From assembly GCA_000991405.1 (NCBI GenBank), contig LBRL01000001.1:456466-520465 (forward strand): a stretch of DNA of 64,000 nt, in the 5' to 3' direction. The translations under genes and the position numbers were made by a program. Shown piece after piece: positions 2,244 to 54,512 of the stretch. Below the pieces are notes generated by a model, which had not been told where the DNA came from, ran no database searches, and was given only the letters and a program-made list of their open reading frames with translations. The stretch's first letter is position 1. Every line of letters begins with the position of its first letter. Origin of the DNA: Candidatus Nomurabacteria bacterium GW2011_GWD2_36_14. GTDB taxonomy: Bacteria > Patescibacteriota > Minisyncoccia > Phycocordibacterales > UBA9973.

Positions 2244-2930
2244 TTATTTCAAGAGAAAACGAAGAGTTGAAACTAAACGGATCTTTTTATACTCAGGAGA
2301 GCCAGGATCTTTGTCTGTAATATCAAATACTCCTTGATTCCCTCTTGTAACACTTCCAACTACTGAATTTGAATTTTTAGCAAATTGTGAAGCTGTATCA
2401 CGAGCATTTTTTATTGCTTCAGCAAGCATTTCTGGCTTCACGCTATTTAAGTCAGAAAATTCAAAAGATATATTATTCTGGCTTAGTACCACTCCCCTTT
2501 TAACTAAGAGCAATGTCTCATTTGATGCTGATTTAGCAAGATCAACTTTCTTTGTATATACAGAAACTTGATTATTGGAATTGTATCTAAAGGCAGAACC
2601 TTTGTATGTATCTTGATAAATATTTACAGGAGCTGCATTTATTTCACTATCTTCAAAACCTTTTTCTTTTAGAAAAGATTTAATCGTTACAATGTTTTTT
2701 TCTATATCAGAATATAGTGAATCAACTTCATTTGATTTCACTTCAAAACTCATAGACCAAATAGCCGTATCAGCTTTCACAATCTTCTCAGAAAGACCCT
2801 TTACCTCCACATATGAACCTTGCTTTGAGAAATCATGAGCTGAGATAAAAAAGGCAACAGAAATTAATATAGCAAAAGCTACAATTGATAAACTTATAAA
2901 AGCAAACTTATTTTCTTTAATATTTTCCAT
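2244..2930 (-). CDS. SIMPL/DUF541-like periplasmic protein with N-terminal membrane anchor
   Basis: 228 aa, N-terminal TM then soluble domain; resembles 26-kDa periplasmic immunogenic protein (SIMPL) family by overall pattern. Confidence 0.4.
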   Translation of the reverse strand: MENIKENKFAFISLSIVAFAILISVAFFISAHDFSKQGSYVEVKGLSEKIVKADTAIWSMSFEVKSNEVDSLYSDIEKNIVTIKSFLKEKGFEDSEINAAPVNIYQDTYKGSAFRYNSNNQVSVYTKKVDLAKSASNETLLLVKRGVVLSQNNISFEFSDLNSVKPEMLAEAIKNARDTASQFAKNSNSVVGSVTRGNQGVFDITDKDPGSPEYKKIRLVSTLRFLLK

Positions 2931-2955
2931 ACATTAAGTATACCATATTTCCTGC

Positions 2956-3041
2956 GGAGCCGGCTGGATTCGAACCAGCGAGGGGTTTTATCCCCTGCAT
3001 CTTTAGCAAAGATGTACGTTAGACCACTCTGACACGGCTCC
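2956..3041 (-). tRNA. tRNA-Ser (anticodon GCU), type II with long variable arm
   Basis: Hand fold of reverse complement: acceptor GGAGCCG/CGGCUCC, discriminator G, anticodon stem CAUCU/AGAUG with loop UUGCUAA, long variable stem-loop, T arm GGUUCGAAUCC. Confidence 0.8.
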
Positions 3042-3136
3042 ATAATAACAATTATACCTTATCATATTTAAGATTTTTACTCAAAATTGTAATTTTATAT
3101 TTAAAGATAATTATGTTAATATAATCAGAGTTAAAA

Positions 3137-3223
3137 GGAGGATTGGATGAGTGGTTTAAATCAACGGTTTACTAAACCGTCGTACCTTAACCGGTACCGT
3201 GAGTTCGAATCTCACATCCTCCG
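3137..3223 (+). tRNA. type-II tRNA, Ser-like (G73, long variable arm); hand-folded anticodon loop UUACUAA = ACU (atypical A34)
   Basis: Acceptor GGAGGAU/AUCCUCC + G; anticodon stem ACGGU/ACCGU; variable stem GUACC/GGUAC; T arm GUGAG-UUCGAAU-CUCAC. Confidence 0.65.
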
Positions 3224-3269
3224 CAAATTATATGGTATAATTATATTATTATTTAAATAATATAAATTT

Positions 3270-23831: not shown

Positions 23832-24908
23832 TTAAAGTCCTAAAGCTTTTACTAACTGCTTTATCAAGCCTACTACAACTGGAGGAGGAAGGAAACTATA
23901 AGAATCTACTCCTTCGTCATCTTTAACAACCCATGATTCTTCAGTTACATCTACTTTTCCTGTCTGTTCGTTATATTTATATATATAACCTGGAGTAATT
24001 TCATAATCATCTACATCATTTATGCTACTAACAGGAATAGAATTTCGAAGAAGTATTTTAGGAACTCCATGCAAAGACATTACTTGCTTAATCAATTTAT
24101 CATCCAAGGTTAAACGGTCGCGAATACTTTCAATACCAGCATCGTCACCCTCCTTGCCTACCATTCTCTCTCCGTTACATTCTGGATTGTCACACTTTAG
24201 GAAATATTTACCAGTCTCTTTATCATAACCAACTTCTTTAGTTGGGAAAACTGTCAAATTTCTTGGAGCCTGACATTTAGGGCAAATGACACGATTACGC
24301 ATACGTTCATCAAGAACTGATTCTGGAATATTGATAGCAATAAACAAGTCAGGGTCAAGACGATAATCTGCTAAATCTCTAAAATAAAGTGAGTATTGAA
24401 CTTGATCTAGATCACGAGGGAAACCATCTATAAAGATAACTTTCCTATCAAACTTATTAATTTCTCTTTTCAATAAGGCGAGAATGAATTCGGTTGGGAG
24501 TAATACCTTTTGGTTTTTACCAACTAGGGCATCAATGGCCTCTTCTACAGAGATATATCCACGATAATGTTCCTCTAAATATTCAACGATATCTGCCTTT
24601 TTTTCAGGGTCAGCAATATCTTTATATATTTGGCGAACCAAGTCACCTACAGAAATATGTCCAATCTTGTCTGCGCCGAAAATTTCAGCCATTAATTTAG
24701 TATAAGTTCCCTTTCCTGAGTTCTTCTTACCAAGAAGATAGGCAATAAAGGTATTATCCTCTAAATACTTTTTAATTTTAGCAATTTCTGGACCTGCTTT
24801 TGCTTCAAAATAATCTTTCCTTTCCTCTGGATTTGTAAGATTAAATTTCTTAGTAACATTAGGCACTTTTGTTTTAATAATAGGGAAATCTGTTAACGGT
24901 CCTTTCAT
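23832..24908 (-). CDS. adenylate kinase-family nucleoside monophosphate kinase, long form (358 aa) with zinc-ribbon LID and N/C extensions
   Basis: P-loop LLGKKNSGKGT, HISVGD, IFIDGFPRD, LID CPKC...CDNPEC; second adk-like gene in window. Confidence 0.65.
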   Translation of the reverse strand: MKGPLTDFPIIKTKVPNVTKKFNLTNPEERKDYFEAKAGPEIAKIKKYLEDNTFIAYLLGKKNSGKGTYTKLMAEIFGADKIGHISVGDLVRQIYKDIADPEKKADIVEYLEEHYRGYISVEEAIDALVGKNQKVLLPTEFILALLKREINKFDRKVIFIDGFPRDLDQVQYSLYFRDLADYRLDPDLFIAINIPESVLDERMRNRVICPKCQAPRNLTVFPTKEVGYDKETGKYFLKCDNPECNGERMVGKEGDDAGIESIRDRLTLDDKLIKQVMSLHGVPKILLRNSIPVSSINDVDDYEITPGYIYKYNEQTGKVDVTEESWVVKDDEGVDSYSFLPPPVVVGLIKQLVKALGL

Positions 24909-24966
24909 AATAATATATATAAATAATCTAATAAAGTACTGGCATTATATACTAAAAACCCATATA

Positions 24967-25003
24967 ACACAAAATACATAGGACGGTCCTATGTATTTTG
25001 TGT
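24967..25003. repeat. REP-like palindrome copy A (overlaps stop codon of CYTH gene)
   Basis: ACACAAAATACATAGGAC-G-GTCCTATGTATTTTGTGT, 18-bp arms. Confidence 0.7.
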
Positions 25004-25567
25004 ATTTTTTGTTTGTTCTTCAAAGGTTAGAACTGAATATTCTTTTTCATTAATCCCATAATGTTTATAAATTTGCATAGTTGAACAACGAATATGTTCT
25101 CTCCAATTCAAATCGAGTTTAATTGCCATATTCTCAACTTCAGCCCAATTTCTTCCTTCTATTTCAAGATACGGTGGAATAAGGGGCCATTCATCAATAC
25201 AAAACTCGACTTCATCTAAAGTATATTTTAATCTTTTATTTTCTTCATAAAACTTTTCGATCATTCCTATGGAAAGTAAAATGTCGGCTGTTTTATTAAA
25301 ATCACTAACTATGATTTCTGTTTCATTCATTCCTAAATCGTTTAAATTTTCTCCAACTCCAAATCTTTTTTTATAAGATAAAGTAATCTGATCTCCTTCA
25401 TCTCTTAATCGAAGCCATGAATGATTAGACTCTAAGCTATCGTTTGGAAAATCAAAAACTCGACGACGATAAATAATATCAAAATTTTTCTTTGCTCCCA
25501 AAGATTCTAGTTTTTCAATAATTTTTTTAATATCAATTTCTAAAAATTTTGCCTCAATTTCTTCCAT
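24989..25567 (-). CDS. CYTH-domain protein (class IV adenylate cyclase / triphosphatase fold)
   Basis: N-terminal EIEAKF (ExExK) signature, 192 aa. Confidence 0.65.
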   Translation of the reverse strand: MEEIEAKFLEIDIKKIIEKLESLGAKKNFDIIYRRRVFDFPNDSLESNHSWLRLRDEGDQITLSYKKRFGVGENLNDLGMNETEIIVSDFNKTADILLSIGMIEKFYEENKRLKYTLDEVEFCIDEWPLIPPYLEIEGRNWAEVENMAIKLDLNWREHIRCSTMQIYKHYGINEKEYSVLTFEEQTKNTQNT

Positions 25568-25601
25568 AAAAAGATTATACTATACTCTGCCTTAAAAAAC
25601 A

Positions 25602-26289
25602 TATACATAGGACGGTCCTATGTGATATAATGTTTATATGGGATTAAGAAGAACTCCCCTTGTTAGAGGAGAATATTATCATATTTATAATAGAGGAGTT
25701 GAAAAAAGAGAAATCTTTTTAGATAAAGAAGATTATTTTCATTTTTTAAAACTCTTATATATTTGTAATTCAAACAAAAGTATCACCCTTCGAAATATCA
25801 GCGATAATTTTGATCGTGGAGAAACTATAGTTGATATAGGCGCTTATTGTATAATGCCTAATCATTTTCATGTACTTTGTTATGAAAAAATAGAAAATGG
25901 CATTTCTACTTTTATGAAAAAATTATCAACTGCATATGCTATGTATTTTAATAAAAAATATATAAGAACAGGAATTCTTTTCCAGGGACGATTTAAATCT
26001 GAACATGCAAATACTGATGGATATTTAAAATATTTATATGCTTATATCCATCTTAATCCTGCAAAACTAAAAAATCCAAAATGGAAAGAAGACAAAACAC
26101 ACAAATCAAAAGAATTACTAATCTTTGTAAAAAAATATCCATATTCTAGTTTATATGAATATCTAAATAATAAAATTAAAATTACAAACCCAGCATCATT
26201 CCCTTCTTATTTCCCAAATATTAAATCTCATATTGATGATCTCTTTCAATGGTTATCAACACAAAATACATAGGACCGTCCTATGTATT
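25602..26289 (+). mobile_element. REPtron: IS200/IS605-like Y1 (HuH) transposase gene flanked by REP palindromes B (25602-25624) and C (26265-26289)
   Basis: ACATAGGAC(G/C)GTCCTATGT palindromes on both sides of the transposase ORF; third copy at 24967-25003. Confidence 0.7.
25638..26273 (+). CDS. Y1 HuH transposase, IS200-like / REP-associated tyrosine transposase (RAYT)
   Basis: HuH motif IMPNHFHVL and catalytic-Tyr motif YLYAYIHLNP; 211 aa; stop codon lies inside REP copy C. Confidence 0.7.
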   Translation: MGLRRTPLVRGEYYHIYNRGVEKREIFLDKEDYFHFLKLLYICNSNKSITLRNISDNFDRGETIVDIGAYCIMPNHFHVLCYEKIENGISTFMKKLSTAYAMYFNKKYIRTGILFQGRFKSEHANTDGYLKYLYAYIHLNPAKLKNPKWKEDKTHKSKELLIFVKKYPYSSLYEYLNNKIKITNPASFPSYFPNIKSHIDDLFQWLSTQNT

Positions 26290-26296
26290 AAAGTTT

Positions 26297-26821
26297 TTAG
26301 TCGATATTCTCTACAATACTCGTCTTGTCGTGCCCTAATTCTTTAGCTCTTTTTACAGCTTTATTCATTAGGTAAACCCAATGATCATAATCCTTATTGT
26401 GATTTCTAGACATCCAACTGGTTAAAATTTCTTCATTTGTGTGCCATTCTAATTCAAAGTTTTCATGTTCTTCCAACTTAGTTTGCTGAGTTTTTTGACT
26501 ATTTAATATAACCAACAAGCAGGTTGCGTATGCTACACGAGGAACTTGCTTGTTGCTATTGAAGTAATGCGTCAAAACCTTATCAACCTTTTCAATATGT
26601 AAATAGTCCACTAGGCCACTCTCTTCGACAAGTTCTCTCAAGACTCCCGTCTCTTCATCTTCACCTTCATCGAATCCTCCTCCAAAGAGTCCTAATACTC
26701 CATTTTTCAAATTTCTATATACAGCGTACTTTTGTGTTTGTGGATCAAAAACAACAGAGCATCCACCATCGCGACGCTCTTCCCCTTCTCTCTTTATTCC
26801 AAACTCCAAAATTTCTTCCAT
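26297..26821 (-). CDS. NUDIX hydrolase
   Basis: Nudix box GGGFDEGEDEETGVLRELVEESG. Confidence 0.75.
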   Translation of the reverse strand: MEEILEFGIKREGEERRDGGCSVVFDPQTQKYAVYRNLKNGVLGLFGGGFDEGEDEETGVLRELVEESGLVDYLHIEKVDKVLTHYFNSNKQVPRVAYATCLLVILNSQKTQQTKLEEHENFELEWHTNEEILTSWMSRNHNKDYDHWVYLMNKAVKRAKELGHDKTSIVENID

Positions 26822-26827
26822 AATTTC

Positions 26828-29563
26828 TTACAAATTCCTATACTTCTCCATTATCTCTTCTTCTACTTCTTCACGAAGGCGACCGTACTTGAGGTACGAT
26901 AACTCCTTGATCTTATCAACTATTTCTGTATTACCCTTTGGAGTTAGGCTCCAGTGGGAAGTCATAGAAAATGGCTTCGTCGGTGTACCATTTACCAGCA
27001 TTGAGACATATGAATTGAAATTATCCAACTTCATAATATCTGTTGCTGTGAAAGTTGGCTTGAATCTTGGCTCTATGAAGCTCGCATCCTCGGTACTGAT
27101 TCGATAGATAGCCATCGAACCCACGTTTCCGAAGACAGCATTCTTAATACCCTCTTCAAGTTGAGAAATATACTGGTGAGCCACAGTCAAAGACAAGCGG
27201 TACTTACGAGCTTCAGAAAGTATTGAGGCTATTGAGTCCGTCGTGACATTTTGGAATTCATCGATATATAGATAGAAGTCATTCATTTTCTGCCCATACA
27301 TATCTACACGAGAAAGCGCCGCCATCTGAATCTTGCCGACAAGCAGAAGTCCTATTAGATTGGCATTTACTTCTCCAAGTCTACCTTTAGAAAGATTGAT
27401 CAAAAGTATCTTTTTATTGTCCATGATCTCACGGAAGTTAAAGGCTGACTTCTCCTGAAGCACCACTGGACGCATGATGTCGTTCGATATAAAGTTGTCG
27501 AACTTGGAAGTAATGTATGGCACGAAGTTGGCAATGGACTGGTCCCCTGTTGTCTTCTCGGCATTGGCCCAGAATTCTTTGACGATTGGGTTCTTGCATT
27601 TAGCACAAAGTGCATCTCGGTATTCCTTGTTGCCAAGTATGCGCGTGATATCAAGTAAGGTTGCATGAGCTTCTGGATCATCCATGGCTAGGAAGGCACT
27701 GTTCTTGAAATATTGTTCGAACATCGGACCGCCTGAAGTCTTCATATCAAAAAGTTTATTGAAGATACTCATAAGCTCGTTGACCACGAAAGTCTTCTGT
27801 TCAGGATACTTGGGATCATACTCAAGCATGTTGAGCCCCATAGGACGAGCTGTATAAGCAGGGTCAAAGTATATGACGTCATCAATACGCTCCTTGGGTA
27901 CATAACTCAAGATGTCTTGGATATCACTACCATGCGGATCAATAAAGCAACATCCCTCCCCGTTCTTAATATCCTGCGCAATCATATTCTTCAATATTGT
28001 AGTCTTACCTGTACCAGTCTGTCCTATGACGTACATATGACGCATACGATCTTCGCGACTCATACGTATCTCTGTATCCTTACCTCGGTAGCTATTGATA
28101 CCCAAGAGTATCCCCTCACTGCCCATCTCAAGAGGAGCTGGGGCAAAGCCGGCCTTAGCCTGCTTGAGCTGTGAAGATACCACTCCATTGGGAAAGTGAA
28201 AGACCGTTGCAAGCTCTTTCAGATTGAGTGGCATCGAGTAATTATCAGAGAAGGTTCGATAAGAGAAATCATGAATGAGATTCATTAGAGACGAACCCGT
28301 AGGATGATTAAAATTGAAACCATTCCTGTCTGACTCGGTGAATTGATTGAAGGAGGACTCTATTTCAGAGAGTATTTGTTTGGATCTACTTTCGTCTTCT
28401 GCTGAAGCCATGATACGGATGTTGGTAGCCATGATAGTACTCTTGAGCTTCTCGCCGATGTACTCAACAGCCTTATCATTTACCTTTTTCTCTTCTTTCT
28501 TTTTAGAAGCTCCAAAAAGTAATTCGGACGCCAAATTCTTAAATTCTTTCGTGACTTGGCGAGTCATACTAGAGGCTGTACGAACCGACATCCCATTCTT
28601 CACATCAGAGTGAATGATGTGAAACTTTCTGATAATGTCTTCGTCTTCAGGACAAATAGAGAATTGAATTGCCGCTCCTTCGCCTTCCTTCTTTAACTTC
28701 GTAAAGACATTGAGAATGATATTTAAAGGATCGTGGTCGATAGCATCATAAAGCTTGATAGGATAGACTTCATGATGAGCGAGAGTAGCATAAGAGGCAC
28801 TGATAGATGCATGCTCAGAGAAAATATTGTAATCATCTGGCACTTCTGTAACTTTTGCATCCAAGTTCACTCCGAGAAGTTGCTTCTCGAAAAGTTCTGC
28901 CTTATTCGTAGGTACCGCAACGTAGAATACAAAGCTATCAGATCCTTCAGAAAGAGCAATCTCTAGGGTAAAGTGATTCCTATTATAATTCTCTCTACCT
29001 TCCCCCACTGAGTGCATACCTGCATAGAATTGCTCCATGGCAGAAAGTAATTCTTTCAAACCCTTCTTTTCTTTATCGTTATCAGCTGCATCTGGAAGAG
29101 TAATTTCGAAAAGTTTCATATCTAGAGATTTGAAGAGGGGTGTACCTTCTTTAAGTCCAGGAACTTTGTGAGTTGTATACAAGTATTGAACAAGGAAACG
29201 ATGGAAGTCGTCATCTAGGTGAGGATTGTTCATTTTGGCAATAACAGAAAGAACGTTGGAAATACCTTTGTCTAGTAGTATTGCAAGCATTTCTTCCATT
29301 TTGGCATCATGACCTTCTGGATGTAACCTCAAAACCAAACTTTCAACTTCTTTTTTACCCATGACTGCACTTTTATGCATTACATCTTCTGGCTCATACT
29401 TTCTGTATTCATGGATTACATCATGAGCAAGCATTTCCTTATTGGCCTCCTTGCCTTGTTCTACCAAGGCCTTCTCTTTCTCTGCGATATGCGCACGCAA
29501 AAATTCTAACTCCTCTTGTGGAGTCTTAAATTTAGGAGCATTGTTCAAATTAAATCCTTCCAT
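26828..29563 (-). CDS. FtsK/HerA-superfamily P-loop ATPase resembling type IV secretion coupling proteins (TraD/TraG/VirD4/TrwB-like), no N-terminal TM
   Basis: Walker A GQTGTGKTT, downstream FIDPHGSD (DPKG-like), Walker B YLYIDEF, C-terminal ARKYRLSLTVAHQYISQL; ~450-aa non-ATPase N-terminal region. Confidence 0.5.
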   Translation of the reverse strand: MEGFNLNNAPKFKTPQEELEFLRAHIAEKEKALVEQGKEANKEMLAHDVIHEYRKYEPEDVMHKSAVMGKKEVESLVLRLHPEGHDAKMEEMLAILLDKGISNVLSVIAKMNNPHLDDDFHRFLVQYLYTTHKVPGLKEGTPLFKSLDMKLFEITLPDAADNDKEKKGLKELLSAMEQFYAGMHSVGEGRENYNRNHFTLEIALSEGSDSFVFYVAVPTNKAELFEKQLLGVNLDAKVTEVPDDYNIFSEHASISASYATLAHHEVYPIKLYDAIDHDPLNIILNVFTKLKKEGEGAAIQFSICPEDEDIIRKFHIIHSDVKNGMSVRTASSMTRQVTKEFKNLASELLFGASKKKEEKKVNDKAVEYIGEKLKSTIMATNIRIMASAEDESRSKQILSEIESSFNQFTESDRNGFNFNHPTGSSLMNLIHDFSYRTFSDNYSMPLNLKELATVFHFPNGVVSSQLKQAKAGFAPAPLEMGSEGILLGINSYRGKDTEIRMSREDRMRHMYVIGQTGTGKTTILKNMIAQDIKNGEGCCFIDPHGSDIQDILSYVPKERIDDVIYFDPAYTARPMGLNMLEYDPKYPEQKTFVVNELMSIFNKLFDMKTSGGPMFEQYFKNSAFLAMDDPEAHATLLDITRILGNKEYRDALCAKCKNPIVKEFWANAEKTTGDQSIANFVPYITSKFDNFISNDIMRPVVLQEKSAFNFREIMDNKKILLINLSKGRLGEVNANLIGLLLVGKIQMAALSRVDMYGQKMNDFYLYIDEFQNVTTDSIASILSEARKYRLSLTVAHQYISQLEEGIKNAVFGNVGSMAIYRISTEDASFIEPRFKPTFTATDIMKLDNFNSYVSMLVNGTPTKPFSMTSHWSLTPKGNTEIVDKIKELSYLKYGRLREEVEEEIMEKYRNL

Positions 29564-31248: not shown

Positions 31249-32946
31249 TTAATACACTTCCTGTTGATAGCACTTCTCACAGTATACTATTTCTGGTCGG
31301 TCGGGAGAATATGAGGTTTCGAATTCATTAGTACAACCCTCTTTCATACAAGAGCGATGGTAAAAATGAGGTGAATTACGTAATTGCAATCTTTCATAGT
31401 GACGACAATTAGGACATAACCTAGGTAATGGAATATTCATTCTTTTACAAAAATCAACTTCTTTTTCAATAACCCTAAAAGCCCCAACACATTCATGATG
31501 ACAATTTCCTTGATGAGCACATTCAATAATTTCATTTAAAATATTTTTATCTACATCTTGAATATCATCAGGAATTTCTGCATTTTTTAATGTTATTTTA
31601 TAATCTTGACCTAAAGTTGAATACCATGTAAATCCTTGCTCTTTAGCAACTTGTTCTTCTAATGGAAAAAATTCATATGCTTCTGTTGCCTGATATGGCC
31701 AAGGAGATAACGATGATGGGAAAAATTCACCATACTCACCAGTTGTTTTCATATGTTCAATTATTTTTGGAATCAATTCTTCATATTTTTCTTTTGTATA
31801 CTGTTTATTTAAAATACAATATTCTTTTTTACGAAGTGAAATACATCCAAACAAATTTGAACACGAGGGAAAACAAAAGAAACAATAAGTAAGATTTTTA
31901 CCATTTTGAACAACTTGAGAAGAAAATTTAACATTAGATATCCCACTTCCAACAACTAATGATTCATATATAAGCTCTACATTATCTCCATAATTTGCAT
32001 AATCGTAACAATCATTCACTGGACCAGTTAAAATATTTTGAATAAATTTACTATTTTCAACCTCTTTAACTCTAAAACAATTTAGAGCATTTTTGGACTC
32101 ATAAATATAATCACCTAAAACAGTTAGGTTTTGCTTTCCATGAATAAATTTATGAGGATATTTTAGCCAATGTTTATATGCTTGATCTTTTAATGATTGA
32201 AAATCTTTTTCTGAACCAAAATTAAATTCTGATAATTTCTTTTTATATTCTTCTTTTGTATAAGGCTTATTAAATATATAATATGATTTATTTCGAAGTC
32301 CAATTGAAGCAATACAATTATTACAACCTATGCAATCTTTGCATAAAATTGTATCTTGGCAAATTTCACAATCAACTGAAAAGAAAGTCTTATAGCAAGA
32401 AATAGTATTTACATTACCATAACTTAATTCGCATTGATCTGTCATGTGACTATCTAAACATTCTTTTGATTTTTGATCCCAAATAAGATAAGCAGAATCT
32501 TCTGTAAAAGATGCACCACGTACCAAATAACAACCTTTGATATTATTAGAATTTGTACAATATTCGCAATCTGTAATATACATCATGGAGTGTGCAGGGA
32601 GAGGAACTGTATGTAATAATTCTTTGAATTGTTCAAAAAAAGTTTTAGAAAAATCATAATCCTTACCATATGTAGTTGGGTCCCAATCATCTGAAATCCA
32701 ATAATCTCGATCATAAATTTTTACTGGACTTTCTTCGGGAAACAATGAAAAAATCTTTTTACCATTAAGACTGTCCGTTTTTTTAAATAAATGCCATCCA
32801 TTTCTCCAAGACATTCGACGCTGTAAACGACAATTAGGACAGAAGGTTGGAGGAGGGACTTTAATCTTCTCATAAAAAGAAAAGTCATCAGGTTCAATAA
32901 TAAAGTCTTTTTTACAGTTTTGGCAGGTCTTCGTTTGTGATTCCAT
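31249..32946 (-). CDS. large Cys-rich protein of unknown function (paralog A)
   Basis: N-terminal CQNCKKDF-IE-DF-FY-KIKVP-PTFCP-CR; many CxxC/CxC repeats; C-terminal NIPLP-LCPNCR...YC-KCYQQE-Y; paralogous to 52761-54512. Confidence 0.5.
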   Translation of the reverse strand: MESQTKTCQNCKKDFIIEPDDFSFYEKIKVPPPTFCPNCRLQRRMSWRNGWHLFKKTDSLNGKKIFSLFPEESPVKIYDRDYWISDDWDPTTYGKDYDFSKTFFEQFKELLHTVPLPAHSMMYITDCEYCTNSNNIKGCYLVRGASFTEDSAYLIWDQKSKECLDSHMTDQCELSYGNVNTISCYKTFFSVDCEICQDTILCKDCIGCNNCIASIGLRNKSYYIFNKPYTKEEYKKKLSEFNFGSEKDFQSLKDQAYKHWLKYPHKFIHGKQNLTVLGDYIYESKNALNCFRVKEVENSKFIQNILTGPVNDCYDYANYGDNVELIYESLVVGSGISNVKFSSQVVQNGKNLTYCFFCFPSCSNLFGCISLRKKEYCILNKQYTKEKYEELIPKIIEHMKTTGEYGEFFPSSLSPWPYQATEAYEFFPLEEQVAKEQGFTWYSTLGQDYKITLKNAEIPDDIQDVDKNILNEIIECAHQGNCHHECVGAFRVIEKEVDFCKRMNIPLPRLCPNCRHYERLQLRNSPHFYHRSCMKEGCTNEFETSYSPDRPEIVYCEKCYQQEVY

Positions 32947-52760: not shown

Positions 52761-54512
52761 ATGGAAAAAGAAAACAAAATCTGCCAAAATTGTAAAAAAG
52801 ACTTTACAATCGAATCAGAGGATTTTATATTTTACGATAAAATAAAAGTTCCAGTACCAACTTTTTGTCCAGAATGTAGATCTATTCGTCGATTATTATG
52901 GAGAAATGAACACACACTATATAGAAGAATATGTAATTTATGTCAAAAACAAATTATATCTATTTACTCACAAGAATACCCTGGGTTGGTCTACTGTAAC
53001 AAATGCTTGCATTCTGATAAATGGGATTCTAATAATCAAAAAGAATATGATTTTTCGATACCATTCTTTATCCAATTTAAAGAATTAATAAACTCCACAC
53101 CACTATTAGCATTAAATATTTTTAATTCTGAAAATTGTCAATACAATAATCATATGAGTAATTGTAAGGACTGTTATTTATGTTTTCGAGTTCATAATTC
53201 CAAGAATATGCTCTATACTTATCGCGCAAAACCATGTAACGATTGCACAGACTGCATGGGGGTATTTAATTCTAGTTGGCTTTATTCATGTATTGAGTGC
53301 ATAGATTCAAATAATTCTAAATATTTAGAATTTTGTAGTGGATGTATTGAATCTTTGTTTTTGTATGACTGCCGAAATTGTATGTCTTGCTATATGTGCT
53401 CAAATTTACGTAATAAACAATACTGCTTTATGAATGAGCAATTAACCAAAGAAGAATACCTAAAAAGAATAAGTGAAATTGATTTTGGGTCACGAAACAC
53501 TACAAACAAACTCTTTTTGAAATTTGAAAATATAAAAGCAAATGCGATAAGAAAATATGCGCTGATAACCAATTCAAGTAACGTTACAGGGGACAACATT
53601 AGAAATTCTGAAAACTGCTATCAATGCTTCGATGTTGCTGATATTAAAAATGGAGCATATTTACTTGAAGTATTACACTCATCTCGAGATTCATATGATG
53701 CAATCGGAGGTGGAATGAATGAGCTAGTGTATGAATTTGGTGGAGTCTCTTGTAATAATGCTAAGTTCTGTTTAGATGTCTCTGAGTCAAGAAACATTGA
53801 ATATTGCCAATACAGTGAAAATAATCATGATTTATTTGGTTGTGTAGGATTAAAACATAAAGAATACTGTATTTTAAACAAGCAATACACAAAAGAAGAA
53901 TACGAATTACTTCTCCCAAAAATAATTAATCATATGAATAATATGCCTTATATCTCAAAAGATAATGTTATATATAAATATGGTGAATTTTTCCCAGAAG
54001 AATTATCCCCATTTGCATACAATGAATCATATGCACAAAATTTTTTCCCTTTAACTAAGAAACAAGCATTCGATACAAAAACAGGTTGGCACGAACAAGA
54101 AAAAAGAAACTATCCATTAACAATTGACTCTTCCAATTTAGAAGATAATATTTCCAATGTTACTAAAAATATTTTGGAAGAAACAATTGGTTGCGATCAT
54201 AGAGGGGAATGTCAAGAAAACAATAGTGAATGTAAAGCAATCTGTATTTCTGCTTTTAAAATAACTCCTGAAGAACTTCAATTCTATAAAAAAATGAACA
54301 TACCATTGCCAACATTATGCCCTAATTGTAGACAACACAAAAGACTATTGCAAAAAAACCCCATAAAGCTATGGCACCGTCAGTGTATGTGCAGTACAAA
54401 ACACACTCATCATAAGGATGAACGCTGTGACATAAAATTCGAAACTATATATTCTCCAGATAAATCAGAAATAGTCTATTGTTCAAAATGTTATCAACAG
54501 GAAATATATTAA
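52761..54512 (+). CDS. large Cys-rich protein of unknown function (paralog B)
   Basis: Same N- and C-terminal Cys motifs and internal C-x2-C/NK-Y-ILNKQYTKEEY repeats as 31249-32946. Confidence 0.5.
   Translation: MEKENKICQNCKKDFTIESEDFIFYDKIKVPVPTFCPECRSIRRLLWRNEHTLYRRICNLCQKQIISIYSQEYPGLVYCNKCLHSDKWDSNNQKEYDFSIPFFIQFKELINSTPLLALNIFNSENCQYNNHMSNCKDCYLCFRVHNSKNMLYTYRAKPCNDCTDCMGVFNSSWLYSCIECIDSNNSKYLEFCSGCIESLFLYDCRNCMSCYMCSNLRNKQYCFMNEQLTKEEYLKRISEIDFGSRNTTNKLFLKFENIKANAIRKYALITNSSNVTGDNIRNSENCYQCFDVADIKNGAYLLEVLHSSRDSYDAIGGGMNELVYEFGGVSCNNAKFCLDVSESRNIEYCQYSENNHDLFGCVGLKHKEYCILNKQYTKEEYELLLPKIINHMNNMPYISKDNVIYKYGEFFPEELSPFAYNESYAQNFFPLTKKQAFDTKTGWHEQEKRNYPLTIDSSNLEDNISNVTKNILEETIGCDHRGECQENNSECKAICISAFKITPEELQFYKKMNIPLPTLCPNCRQHKRLLQKNPIKLWHRQCMCSTKHTHHKDERCDIKFETIYSPDKSEIVYCSKCYQQEIY

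Follow-up and report, generated by a model that had tools for sequence, protein, structure and literature searches.

The DNA analysed here, a 64-kb window of a Candidatus Nomurabacteria chromosome (candidate phyla radiation [CPR]/Patescibacteria) on which all coordinates are given, contains a gene for a Y1 HUH nuclease (positions 25638 to 26273, + strand; 211 amino acids [aa]) that is accompanied by three exact copies of a 19-nucleotide (nt) palindrome, ACATAGGAC(G/C)GTCCTATGT, at 24976 to 24994 (hairpin A), 25605 to 25623 (hairpin B), and 26268 to 26286 (hairpin C). The Y1 gene stands head to head with a divergent gene for a CYTH-domain protein (24989 to 25567, − strand; 192 aa; PF01928, E value of 7.2e-13). 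Copies B and C flank the Y1 transposase-like open reading frame (ORF) with its NHFHVL and YIHLNP motifs, just as an earlier note on this DNA had described, and the number of copies given there, three, also holds: scanning with the pattern ACATAGGACSGTCCTATGT detected no further copies in the 64 kb, even when 3 mismatches were allowed, and the expected count was 0.00 (100 dinucleotide-preserving shuffles).

Hairpin A extends to a perfect 37-nt palindrome (24967 to 25003; 18+1+18 nt; core ACATAGGACGGTCCTATGT) between the CYTH gene and a co-directional adenylate kinase (ADK)-like gene (23832 to 24908, − strand), and it is unchanged in a 10-kb contig from the same species (L115). Hairpin B, a 19-nt core palindrome with 9-nt arms, is located in the 70-nt gap that forms the divergent intergenic region of CYTH and Y1; the earlier note had called the CYTH gene convergent, which is wrong. 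Hairpin C has 12-nt arms around ACATAGGACCGTCCTATGT (26265 to 26289). Folded as single-stranded DNA (ssDNA), A, B, and C reach −16.3, −5.9, and −8.5 kcal/mol (z scores of −8.9, −4.4, and −6.2, respectively), and an Rfam scan of positions 24000 to 27000 at an E value of ≤1 found no RNA family. Because they carry TAG, the hairpins supply stop codons: the left arm of hairpin C contains the stop of the Y1 gene (TAG, 26271 to 26273), and the right arm of hairpin A, which is inverted relative to C, contains that of the CYTH gene (TAG, read as CTA on the + strand, 24989 to 24991), the last four CYTH codons also falling inside the hairpin. Both proteins consequently end in QNT followed by the stop, and the earlier claims on this point are confirmed. 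The outer arm of hairpin A, ACACAAAAT, equals the last Y1 codons beside hairpin C; A holds 9 nt of Y1 coding sequence matching the flank of C, and the two hairpins form an inverted repeat of 31 nt with 100% complementarity (24973 to 25003 and 26259 to 26289).

The Y1 protein carries the motif NHFH at residues 75 to 78 (HUH at 76 to 78) and the catalytic Tyr136 within YIHLNP; H76, H78, and Y136, and likewise the NHFH and YIHLNP motifs, are invariant across 34 homologues. Y1_Tnp (PF01797) was the only Pfam match (33.3 bits compared to a cut-off of 23), the NCBIfam models for IS200 gave no match at an E value of ≤1, and the sole NCBIfam match was the equivalog REP_Tyr_transpos (NF047646; REP, repetitive extragenic palindrome), with 34.3 bits compared to a cut-off of 80. 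Searches of PDB sequences with the single protein or with a 34-sequence profile returned nothing, even at an E value of ≤10. The best Foldseek match of an AlphaFold model made from 34 homologues (pLDDT of 80.7) was 4ER8_A, the REP-associated tyrosine transposase (RAYT) of Escherichia coli with REP (E value of 3.3e-5, target TM-score of 0.62, 202 columns); the TnpA structures of IS608 and ISDra2 ranked behind it by a small margin, and among PDB entries the link to RAYTs came from fold comparison only. Quentin et al. (2018, PMC6006769) use the signature Y---NP to define class 2, the RAYT side, and Y---Q to define IS200; Table 1 of the same paper defines part of subclass 2.1 by NH[YF]H, FQ, Y[IV]HLNP, and SS. 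The protein carries this motif set (NHFH, LFQGRF, YIHLNP, and YPYSSL) and is a class 2 TnpA-Y1 protein that is subclass 2.1-like. With its Y---NP motif and with 4ER8 as best structural match, it belongs to the RAYT class and is not an IS200 TnpA. Its motifs and its nearest non-CPR homologues place it in subclass 2.1 (TIRYT), a group reported without REPs.

For the family as a whole, a protein-based metagenome scan yielded 80 loci (47 to 82% identity), in which palindromes of ≥8 bp were located with a motif-blind finder; background windows were placed >1.5 kb from the gene. Palindromes were present in 68 of 76 upstream windows and in 67 of 78 downstream windows, and 65 and 66 of these, respectively, had the form AGG-N5-CCT, in comparison to 151 palindromes in 1,485 background windows, 6 of them with AGG-N5-CCT. 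The gene for the RAYT-class Y1 HUH protein is therefore bracketed by its own palindrome across the family, and this part of the RAYT/REP arrangement that the earlier note had proposed stands. The consensus of 112 distinct hairpins is TAC-NN-AGG-N5-CCT-NN-GTA, with stems of 7 to 20 bp, and its local form in the window is (A)TACATAGGAC-S-GTCCTATGTA. The variable stem segment on the two sides of the gene was identical in 37 of 38 loci, compared to 7.8% of the comparisons made between loci, and in some loci the hairpins form inverted doublets resembling REPINs. The variable NN positions of the stem seem unlikely to be determinants of specificity, because they vary freely from genome to genome with the protein still 80% identical. 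At locus L070, tandem Y1 paralogues (898 to 1560 and 2608 to 3240) have a TPR gene between them; their hairpins have a CATAGG stem in common, with N5 loops of GGTAC/GTACC and TTCAA/TTGAA, respectively, a difference which hints that specificity is carried by the loop.

The hairpins of one genome change in concert. All copies in the window have ACATAGGAC, whereas those at orthologous positions in the related locus L028 have (A/C)TCCAGGAC, all four L028 copies reading ATCCAGGAC or ACCCAGGAC. Hairpins are also polymorphic for presence and absence: the 42-nt hairpin segment at site A is found in the window and in L028 and is cleanly missing from locus L113, between conserved flanks. In the window, this segment replaces the ancestral CYTH stop, after EEQIKK, with four codons and the hairpin TAG, and CYTH orthologues end in EEQIKK and the stop, without a hairpin-encoded tail. 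Since its outer arm ACACAAAAT matches the Y1 codons flanking C and is mirrored on the other side, hairpin A would appear to be derived from C through copying and palindromisation. The outer stem of C, in turn, covaries in orthologues with the final Y1 codons, which change synonymously (AATAC/GTATT, AAACTAC/GTAGTTT, and GAAACCAC/GTGGTTTC).

At an E value of ≤1e-3, 6,668 Y1 homologues were found, and among the 120 matches listed, every source name was either a CPR lineage or unspecific; most homologue clusters occur on one or few contigs, and a partial copy with 100% identity is present in Candidatus Nomurabacteria RIFOXYC2_FULL_36. Orthologues with 78 to 81% identity keep the neighbourhood of the window (beta-CASP, HD, ADK-like, CYTH, Y1, ..., DUF8128), and a second conserved context, recR ... 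Y1 ... rplU, is common to two 63%-identical homologues. Between the window and L028, identity is 80% for Y1, 83% for the ADK-like protein, 82% for DUF8128, 76% for beta-CASP, 66% for HD, and 52% for CYTH, so that the conservation level of Y1 equals that of its best-conserved neighbours. No tnpB-like ORF and no second Y1 copy were found in the 64-kb window, and the context of IS200 with TnpB that the earlier note had set against a REP system is accordingly absent there. Because it has one copy in 64 kb, shared synteny, and housekeeping-level conservation, the Y1 gene is a domesticated, vertically inherited gene under purifying selection and not an insertion sequence.

Additional hairpins in the 80 loci cluster around the gene, 27 of 28 lying at 0.3 to 2 kb from it (∼0.3 expected by chance, by estimate), often with a single unrelated gene in between. 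When one genome per species was scanned, the exact 19-mer was found at 27 loci, exclusively in CPR assemblies and with one to three per genome, compared to a chance expectation of ∼4 matches collection-wide, estimated with equal base frequencies. A Y1 homologue is near the 19-mer at 3 of these 27 loci, and none is present in the surrounding stretch of the other 24. About eleven of the exact copies are at the 3′ ends of genes and the rest are in frame within genes, where they use reading frames that avoid TAG. A fourth hairpin of the family, an addition to the three copies of the earlier note, is located in the window in a convergent intergenic region 13 kb from the module (11582 to 11612, AGATATAGCAAGGACAGTCCTTGCTATATCT; −13.1 kcal/mol, z score of −7.9); its apex is AGG-N5-CCT, its stem is non-cognate, and shuffles of the window predicted 0.12 such hairpins. 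Its stem type, TAGCAAGG, flanks Y1 genes in L082, L085, L089, and L096, and the hairpin may have been left behind by another Y1 lineage or may be a non-cognate copy that is tolerated. In viral contigs, TACATAGG-N5-CCTATGTA gave 9 matches, about the number estimated by chance for 16 fixed bases and none with a Y1 homologue, which is uninformative on spread by phages.

Several in-frame copies were inspected in their genes. In mnmA of five CPR genomes (L006, L017, L018, L022, and L026), the 19-mer is in frame at one common site, where the encoded HRTVLC, with the PRC-barrel on one side and the C-terminal barrel on the other, replaces a stretch of equal length (ESKINL in L055); possible origins are an ancestral copy, repeated conversion, and a codon coincidence in a conserved peptide. 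In a 566-aa family without Pfam domain that is often beside mnmA, the palindrome encodes DHIGRSYVY in three members (L001, 4206 to 5906; L003, 2819 to 4516; and L012, 209 to 1915), and two paralogues in the window are without it (31252 to 32946, − strand, and 52761 to 54509, + strand). In these three members the palindrome is part of a patch of ∼120 nt with 88 to 98% identity, and the rest of the genes are ∼45 to 55% identical, which looks like gene conversion. Further exact copies are in frame in the genes for RNase HII of L005 (7324 to 7342) and for an RluA-like pseudouridine synthase of L021 (5641 to 5659), encoding (D/Y)IG(P/R)SYV, and the L021 copy immediately precedes the HRLDRDTSG motif. 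These in-frame hairpins in mnmA, the 566-aa family, the RNase HII gene, and the RluA-like gene are reminiscent of intragenic REPs and of the Rickettsia palindromic elements (RPEs), reportedly the subject of work by Ogata in 2000; the CPR copies differ from RPEs in that they swap a stretch of equal length without adding residues and in that they have a linked Y1 enzyme, which RPEs are not known to have.

Among promoter-like sites in the region, the best one is a predicted Y1 promoter at 25602 to 25631 (+ strand; TATACA-18 nt-TGaTATAAT; 10 of 12 with TG), a consensus match only, whose −10 box ends 6 nt ahead of the Y1 ATG and whose −35/spacer region is occupied by hairpin B. A TATAAT-like hexamer 4 to 10 nt before the start codon was present in 46 of 58 homologous loci, at exactly 6 nt in 34, and a hairpin is located just upstream of it. 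The box upstream of the Y1 genes is an extended −10 box, TGnTATAAT or TATACT, without a Shine-Dalgarno sequence (25621 to 25640 in the window). With 6 nt between the −10 box and the start codon, this layout suggests leaderless mRNAs for the Y1 gene family of CPR bacteria, and the overlap of the upstream hairpin with the −35/spacer region suggests that Y1 is autoregulated via this hairpin. At the other end of the gene, hairpin C, between the convergent Y1 and NUDIX genes, is terminator-like on both strands, and hairpin A, a stem followed by a T-rich tail, is terminator-like on the + strand.

Among known systems, the locus resembles the REPtrons (E. coli RayT/YafM and the RAYTs of Pseudomonas) in having a Y1 HUH gene with the signature Y---NP that is single-copy and inherited vertically, in the protein fold, which is closest to 4ER8, in the position of the gene between copies of its own palindrome, in the REPIN-like doublets of relatives, and in that each CPR Y1 gene has its own hairpin type. 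REPtron or TnpA-REP systems with REPs and REPINs are reportedly associated with studies by Nunvar in 2010, Bertels and Rainey in 2011, Ton-Hoang in 2012, and Messing in 2012. In classical REPtrons, the flanking REPs are inverted. REPs that give TAG stops to neighbouring ORFs and REPs inside ORFs are also known (Di Nocera et al. 2013, PMC3733652).

The second system to which the locus is similar is the TIRtron, or TIRYT, of subclass 2.1 (Group 1 of the RAYTs of Bertels), with which the protein shares NH[YF]H, FQ, Y[IV]HLNP, and a proximal tail with SS. This group has terminal inverted repeats with GGGGWSAS as its signature (Di Nocera et al. 2013, PMC3733652). The nearest non-CPR homologues, from a plasmid collection, are 25 to 37% identical proteins of ∼230 to 295 aa labelled as transposases, on replicons of Legionella, Sporomusa, Rhodospirillum, Pseudomonas, and Pseudoalteromonas; one of their tails is helix-turn-helix (HTH)/DnaA_C-like, and one is more weakly HTH-like. 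Five of these homologues are flanked by terminal inverted repeats with GGGGTCAG, GGGGACA, or AGGGTCAG, a near variant, which match the published GGGGWSAS or come close to it, and two of the inverted repeats contain AGGCCT or AGGCCTTGCCT, resembling the CPR apex AGG-N5-CCT. In a plasmid of Legionella adelaidensis (L127; 1351 to 1376 and 2321 to 2346) and one of Sporomusa termitida (L130), the repeats contain GGGTCAGGCCTTGCCT and GGGGTCAGGCCT, and their AGG-N5-CCT or AGGCCT elements are identical to hairpin loops of CPR loci (L068, L074, and L086); it is possible, from these matches, that AGG-N5-CCT/AGGCCT is an ancestral recognition core. The CPR protein differs from TIRYTs in that it lacks the distal HTH/DnaA_C-like domain, ending in the alignment where Collinsella and Legionella homologues run on into HTH domains, and in that it has two insertions, of ∼16 and ∼14 aa, compared to non-CPR homologues. 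In place of long terminal inverted repeats, the CPR flanks have self-complementary hairpins without GGGGWSAS. A survey that covered complete genomes only and did not mention CPR reported no REP-like sequences for subclass 2.1 (Quentin et al. 2018, PMC6006769).

We interpret the locus as a REPtron/TIRtron-type module of the Candidatus Nomurabacteria chromosome, with a probability of roughly 70%, in which a RAYT-like Y1 HUH nuclease would be paired with a small cluster of cognate hairpins around its gene. The anatomy of the locus and the comparative evidence (association across the family, identity within genomes, indel polymorphism, dispersed copies, and purifying selection) are solid; from the analogous E. 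coli TnpA-REP and IS608 TnpA, we infer that the Y1 protein binds, cleaves, and mobilises the hairpins and regulates its own gene. The enzyme would bind a hairpin in ssDNA, such as the lagging-strand template or DNA within a transcription bubble, and would nick and rejoin DNA beside it via Tyr136 and an HUH-bound metal. Repair or strand transfer could then copy hairpins to nearby and occasionally to distant sites, and this copying would keep all copies within a genome identical (concerted evolution). The supply of TAG stops, termination, and likely autoregulation through the upstream copy at the promoter would be side effects of the hairpins.

Several observations weigh against this interpretation. 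The palindromes are not canonical REPs: the CPR hairpins have TAC...GTA at their feet and no 5′ GT[AG]G tag, and neither GTAG nor GTGG is present at the hairpin foot in the 112-hairpin consensus. The 34.3 bits of the protein do not reach the cut-off of 80 of the REP_Tyr_transpos equivalog, and its subclass is another one. Loop orientation between the upstream and downstream copies was inverted in 12 loci, direct in 17, and other in 9, and consistently inverted flanking copies, which we looked for, were hence not found. Copy number is low, with three clustered hairpins and one divergent hairpin in 64 kb; hairpin density at >1.5 kb from Y1 genes is ∼1 per 30 kb, far under that of classical REP families, and with 27 of the 28 extra hairpins within 2 kb of the gene, the copies are clustered around it and sparse beyond, tens at most compared to the hundreds of REPs. 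A high genome-wide copy number was not seen in the window, in the 80 loci, or in the related genomes with the exact 19-mer. Finally, the identity of hairpins within a genome could in principle be maintained through selection for binding by one protein rather than through copying. Strict membership of the REPtrons fails on the GTAG tag and the NCBIfam cut-off and, in the DNA scanned, on high copy number.

The alternative that survives best, although we regard it as doubtful, is that the hairpins are mainly cis-regulatory, as operator and terminators, that the Y1-derived protein binds them and no longer mobilises them, that the distant copies are old or coincidental, and that identity within a genome reflects the need to fit one protein. 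Such a role would agree with the location of B and of most upstream hairpins in the −35/spacer region of the conserved, presumably leaderless promoter, with the terminator scores of C and A, with the concentration of hairpins at ≤2 kb from the gene, and with their low overall number. It does not account well for an NN stem that varies between genomes in which the protein is 80% identical and yet is the same within each genome, for the presence or absence of the 42-nt segment at A and the copied piece of Y1 coding sequence within it, or for exact 19-mers far from any Y1 gene, including those in frame in mnmA and the RNase HII gene. The ∼120-nt patch with 88 to 98% identity in genes that are otherwise ∼45 to 55% identical also argues against it, as does the invariance of the catalytic His, His, and Tyr.

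A further proposal, which we consider unlikely, goes beyond a module in one chromosome: a CPR-wide, host-retained HUH nickase-hairpin system that would drive nick-induced, hairpin-centred gene conversion and palindromisation and not mainly classical transposition. If it were true, conversion and palindromisation would rewrite short patches, homogenise all copies in a genome, lengthen stems equally on both sides, and place the hairpin in frame within conserved genes, mnmA for instance, with their length preserved.

That the ∼690 bp of B, the gene, and C are an autonomous IS200-type insertion sequence, fixed or decaying, is very improbable and largely refuted. Its size and its hairpin-tnpA-hairpin layout resemble such an element, the Pfam match is to Y1_Tnp, and the TnpA structures of IS608 and ISDra2 are significant structural matches; with the IS200/IS605 elements (IS200, IS608, and ISDra2), the locus shares the HUH/Y1 fold, subterminal hairpins at both ends of the gene, and a presumed ssDNA chemistry. 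It differs from them in that the protein has Y---NP and not Y---Q and that its 211 aa include a conserved tail, in comparison to a core of ∼150 aa, and it has neither an IS200 NCBIfam match nor tnpB in the window. The single copy in the window has a fixed chromosomal position, the same in 78 to 81%-identical orthologues, and its conservation is at housekeeping level. Hairpins, moreover, exist on their own without the gene, and the stop codon and the promoter of the gene are embedded in hairpins. Despite the stem with T-rich tail at A (+ strand) and C (both strands), ordinary intrinsic terminators or chance repeats unrelated to Y1 are refuted by a sequence expected zero times and present three times locally, by AGG-N5-CCT at 65 of 76 and 66 of 78 Y1 windows versus 6 of 1,485 background windows, and by the location of B upstream of the gene start, with no obvious terminator role.

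Beyond hairpin C, a NUDIX gene (26297 to 26821, − strand) occupies a variable slot between C and the gene for a DUF8128 ATPase (26828 to 29563, − strand; 911 aa), which has faint matches to ATPases of the TrwB/DUF87 type (coupling-protein-like). Across the window, L028, L113, and L114, this slot holds the NUDIX gene, a 167-aa ORF, nothing, or a 209-aa ORF, and in L114, NDK is present in place of the upstream CYTH, ADK-like, and HD genes; gene content in close relatives turns over directly beside the hairpins. The NUDIX gene is context and not a proven part of the module. We considered three larger units and rejected each of them. A relaxase-like role of Y1 together with the DUF8128/TrwB-like ATPase was discarded, their adjacency being confined to close relatives and L053 among the loci compared. 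An integron-like cassette, in which hairpin-gene-hairpin units would carry one type of cargo, was discarded as well: arrangements of hairpin, gene, hairpin, Y1, and hairpin in about a dozen loci enclose unrelated genes (RhuM/Fic, TPR, unknowns, or a second Y1), and no second hairpin closes off the variable slot after C. The third candidate, a composite mobile unit of 1.3 kb from A to C, does not agree with L113, which is without A, or with L114, which has NDK instead of CYTH.

Work on REPs and RAYTs has so far been confined almost entirely to complete genomes of Proteobacteria and of some few other phyla; CPR genomes were absent from the large surveys, which described the subclass that the Y1 protein resembles as having no REP-like partner, and full-text searches of the literature found no paper describing RAYT/REP systems in CPR bacteria. 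What is new is a very large, strongly conserved subclass 2.1-like clade in the genome-reduced CPR bacteria with a cognate hairpin of simple consensus. The REP/RAYT kind of system is thereby extended to a new lineage of ultra-small bacteria, and the arrangement, with genome-specific hairpins, recurs across CPR relatives. An enzyme of 211 aa and a hairpin of ∼21 nt provide a compact model for the recognition and propagation of hairpins by domesticated nucleases. The finding also provides an annotation rule for thousands of CPR genes labelled as transposase, and it is relevant to the question of why such genes are kept in streamlined genomes.

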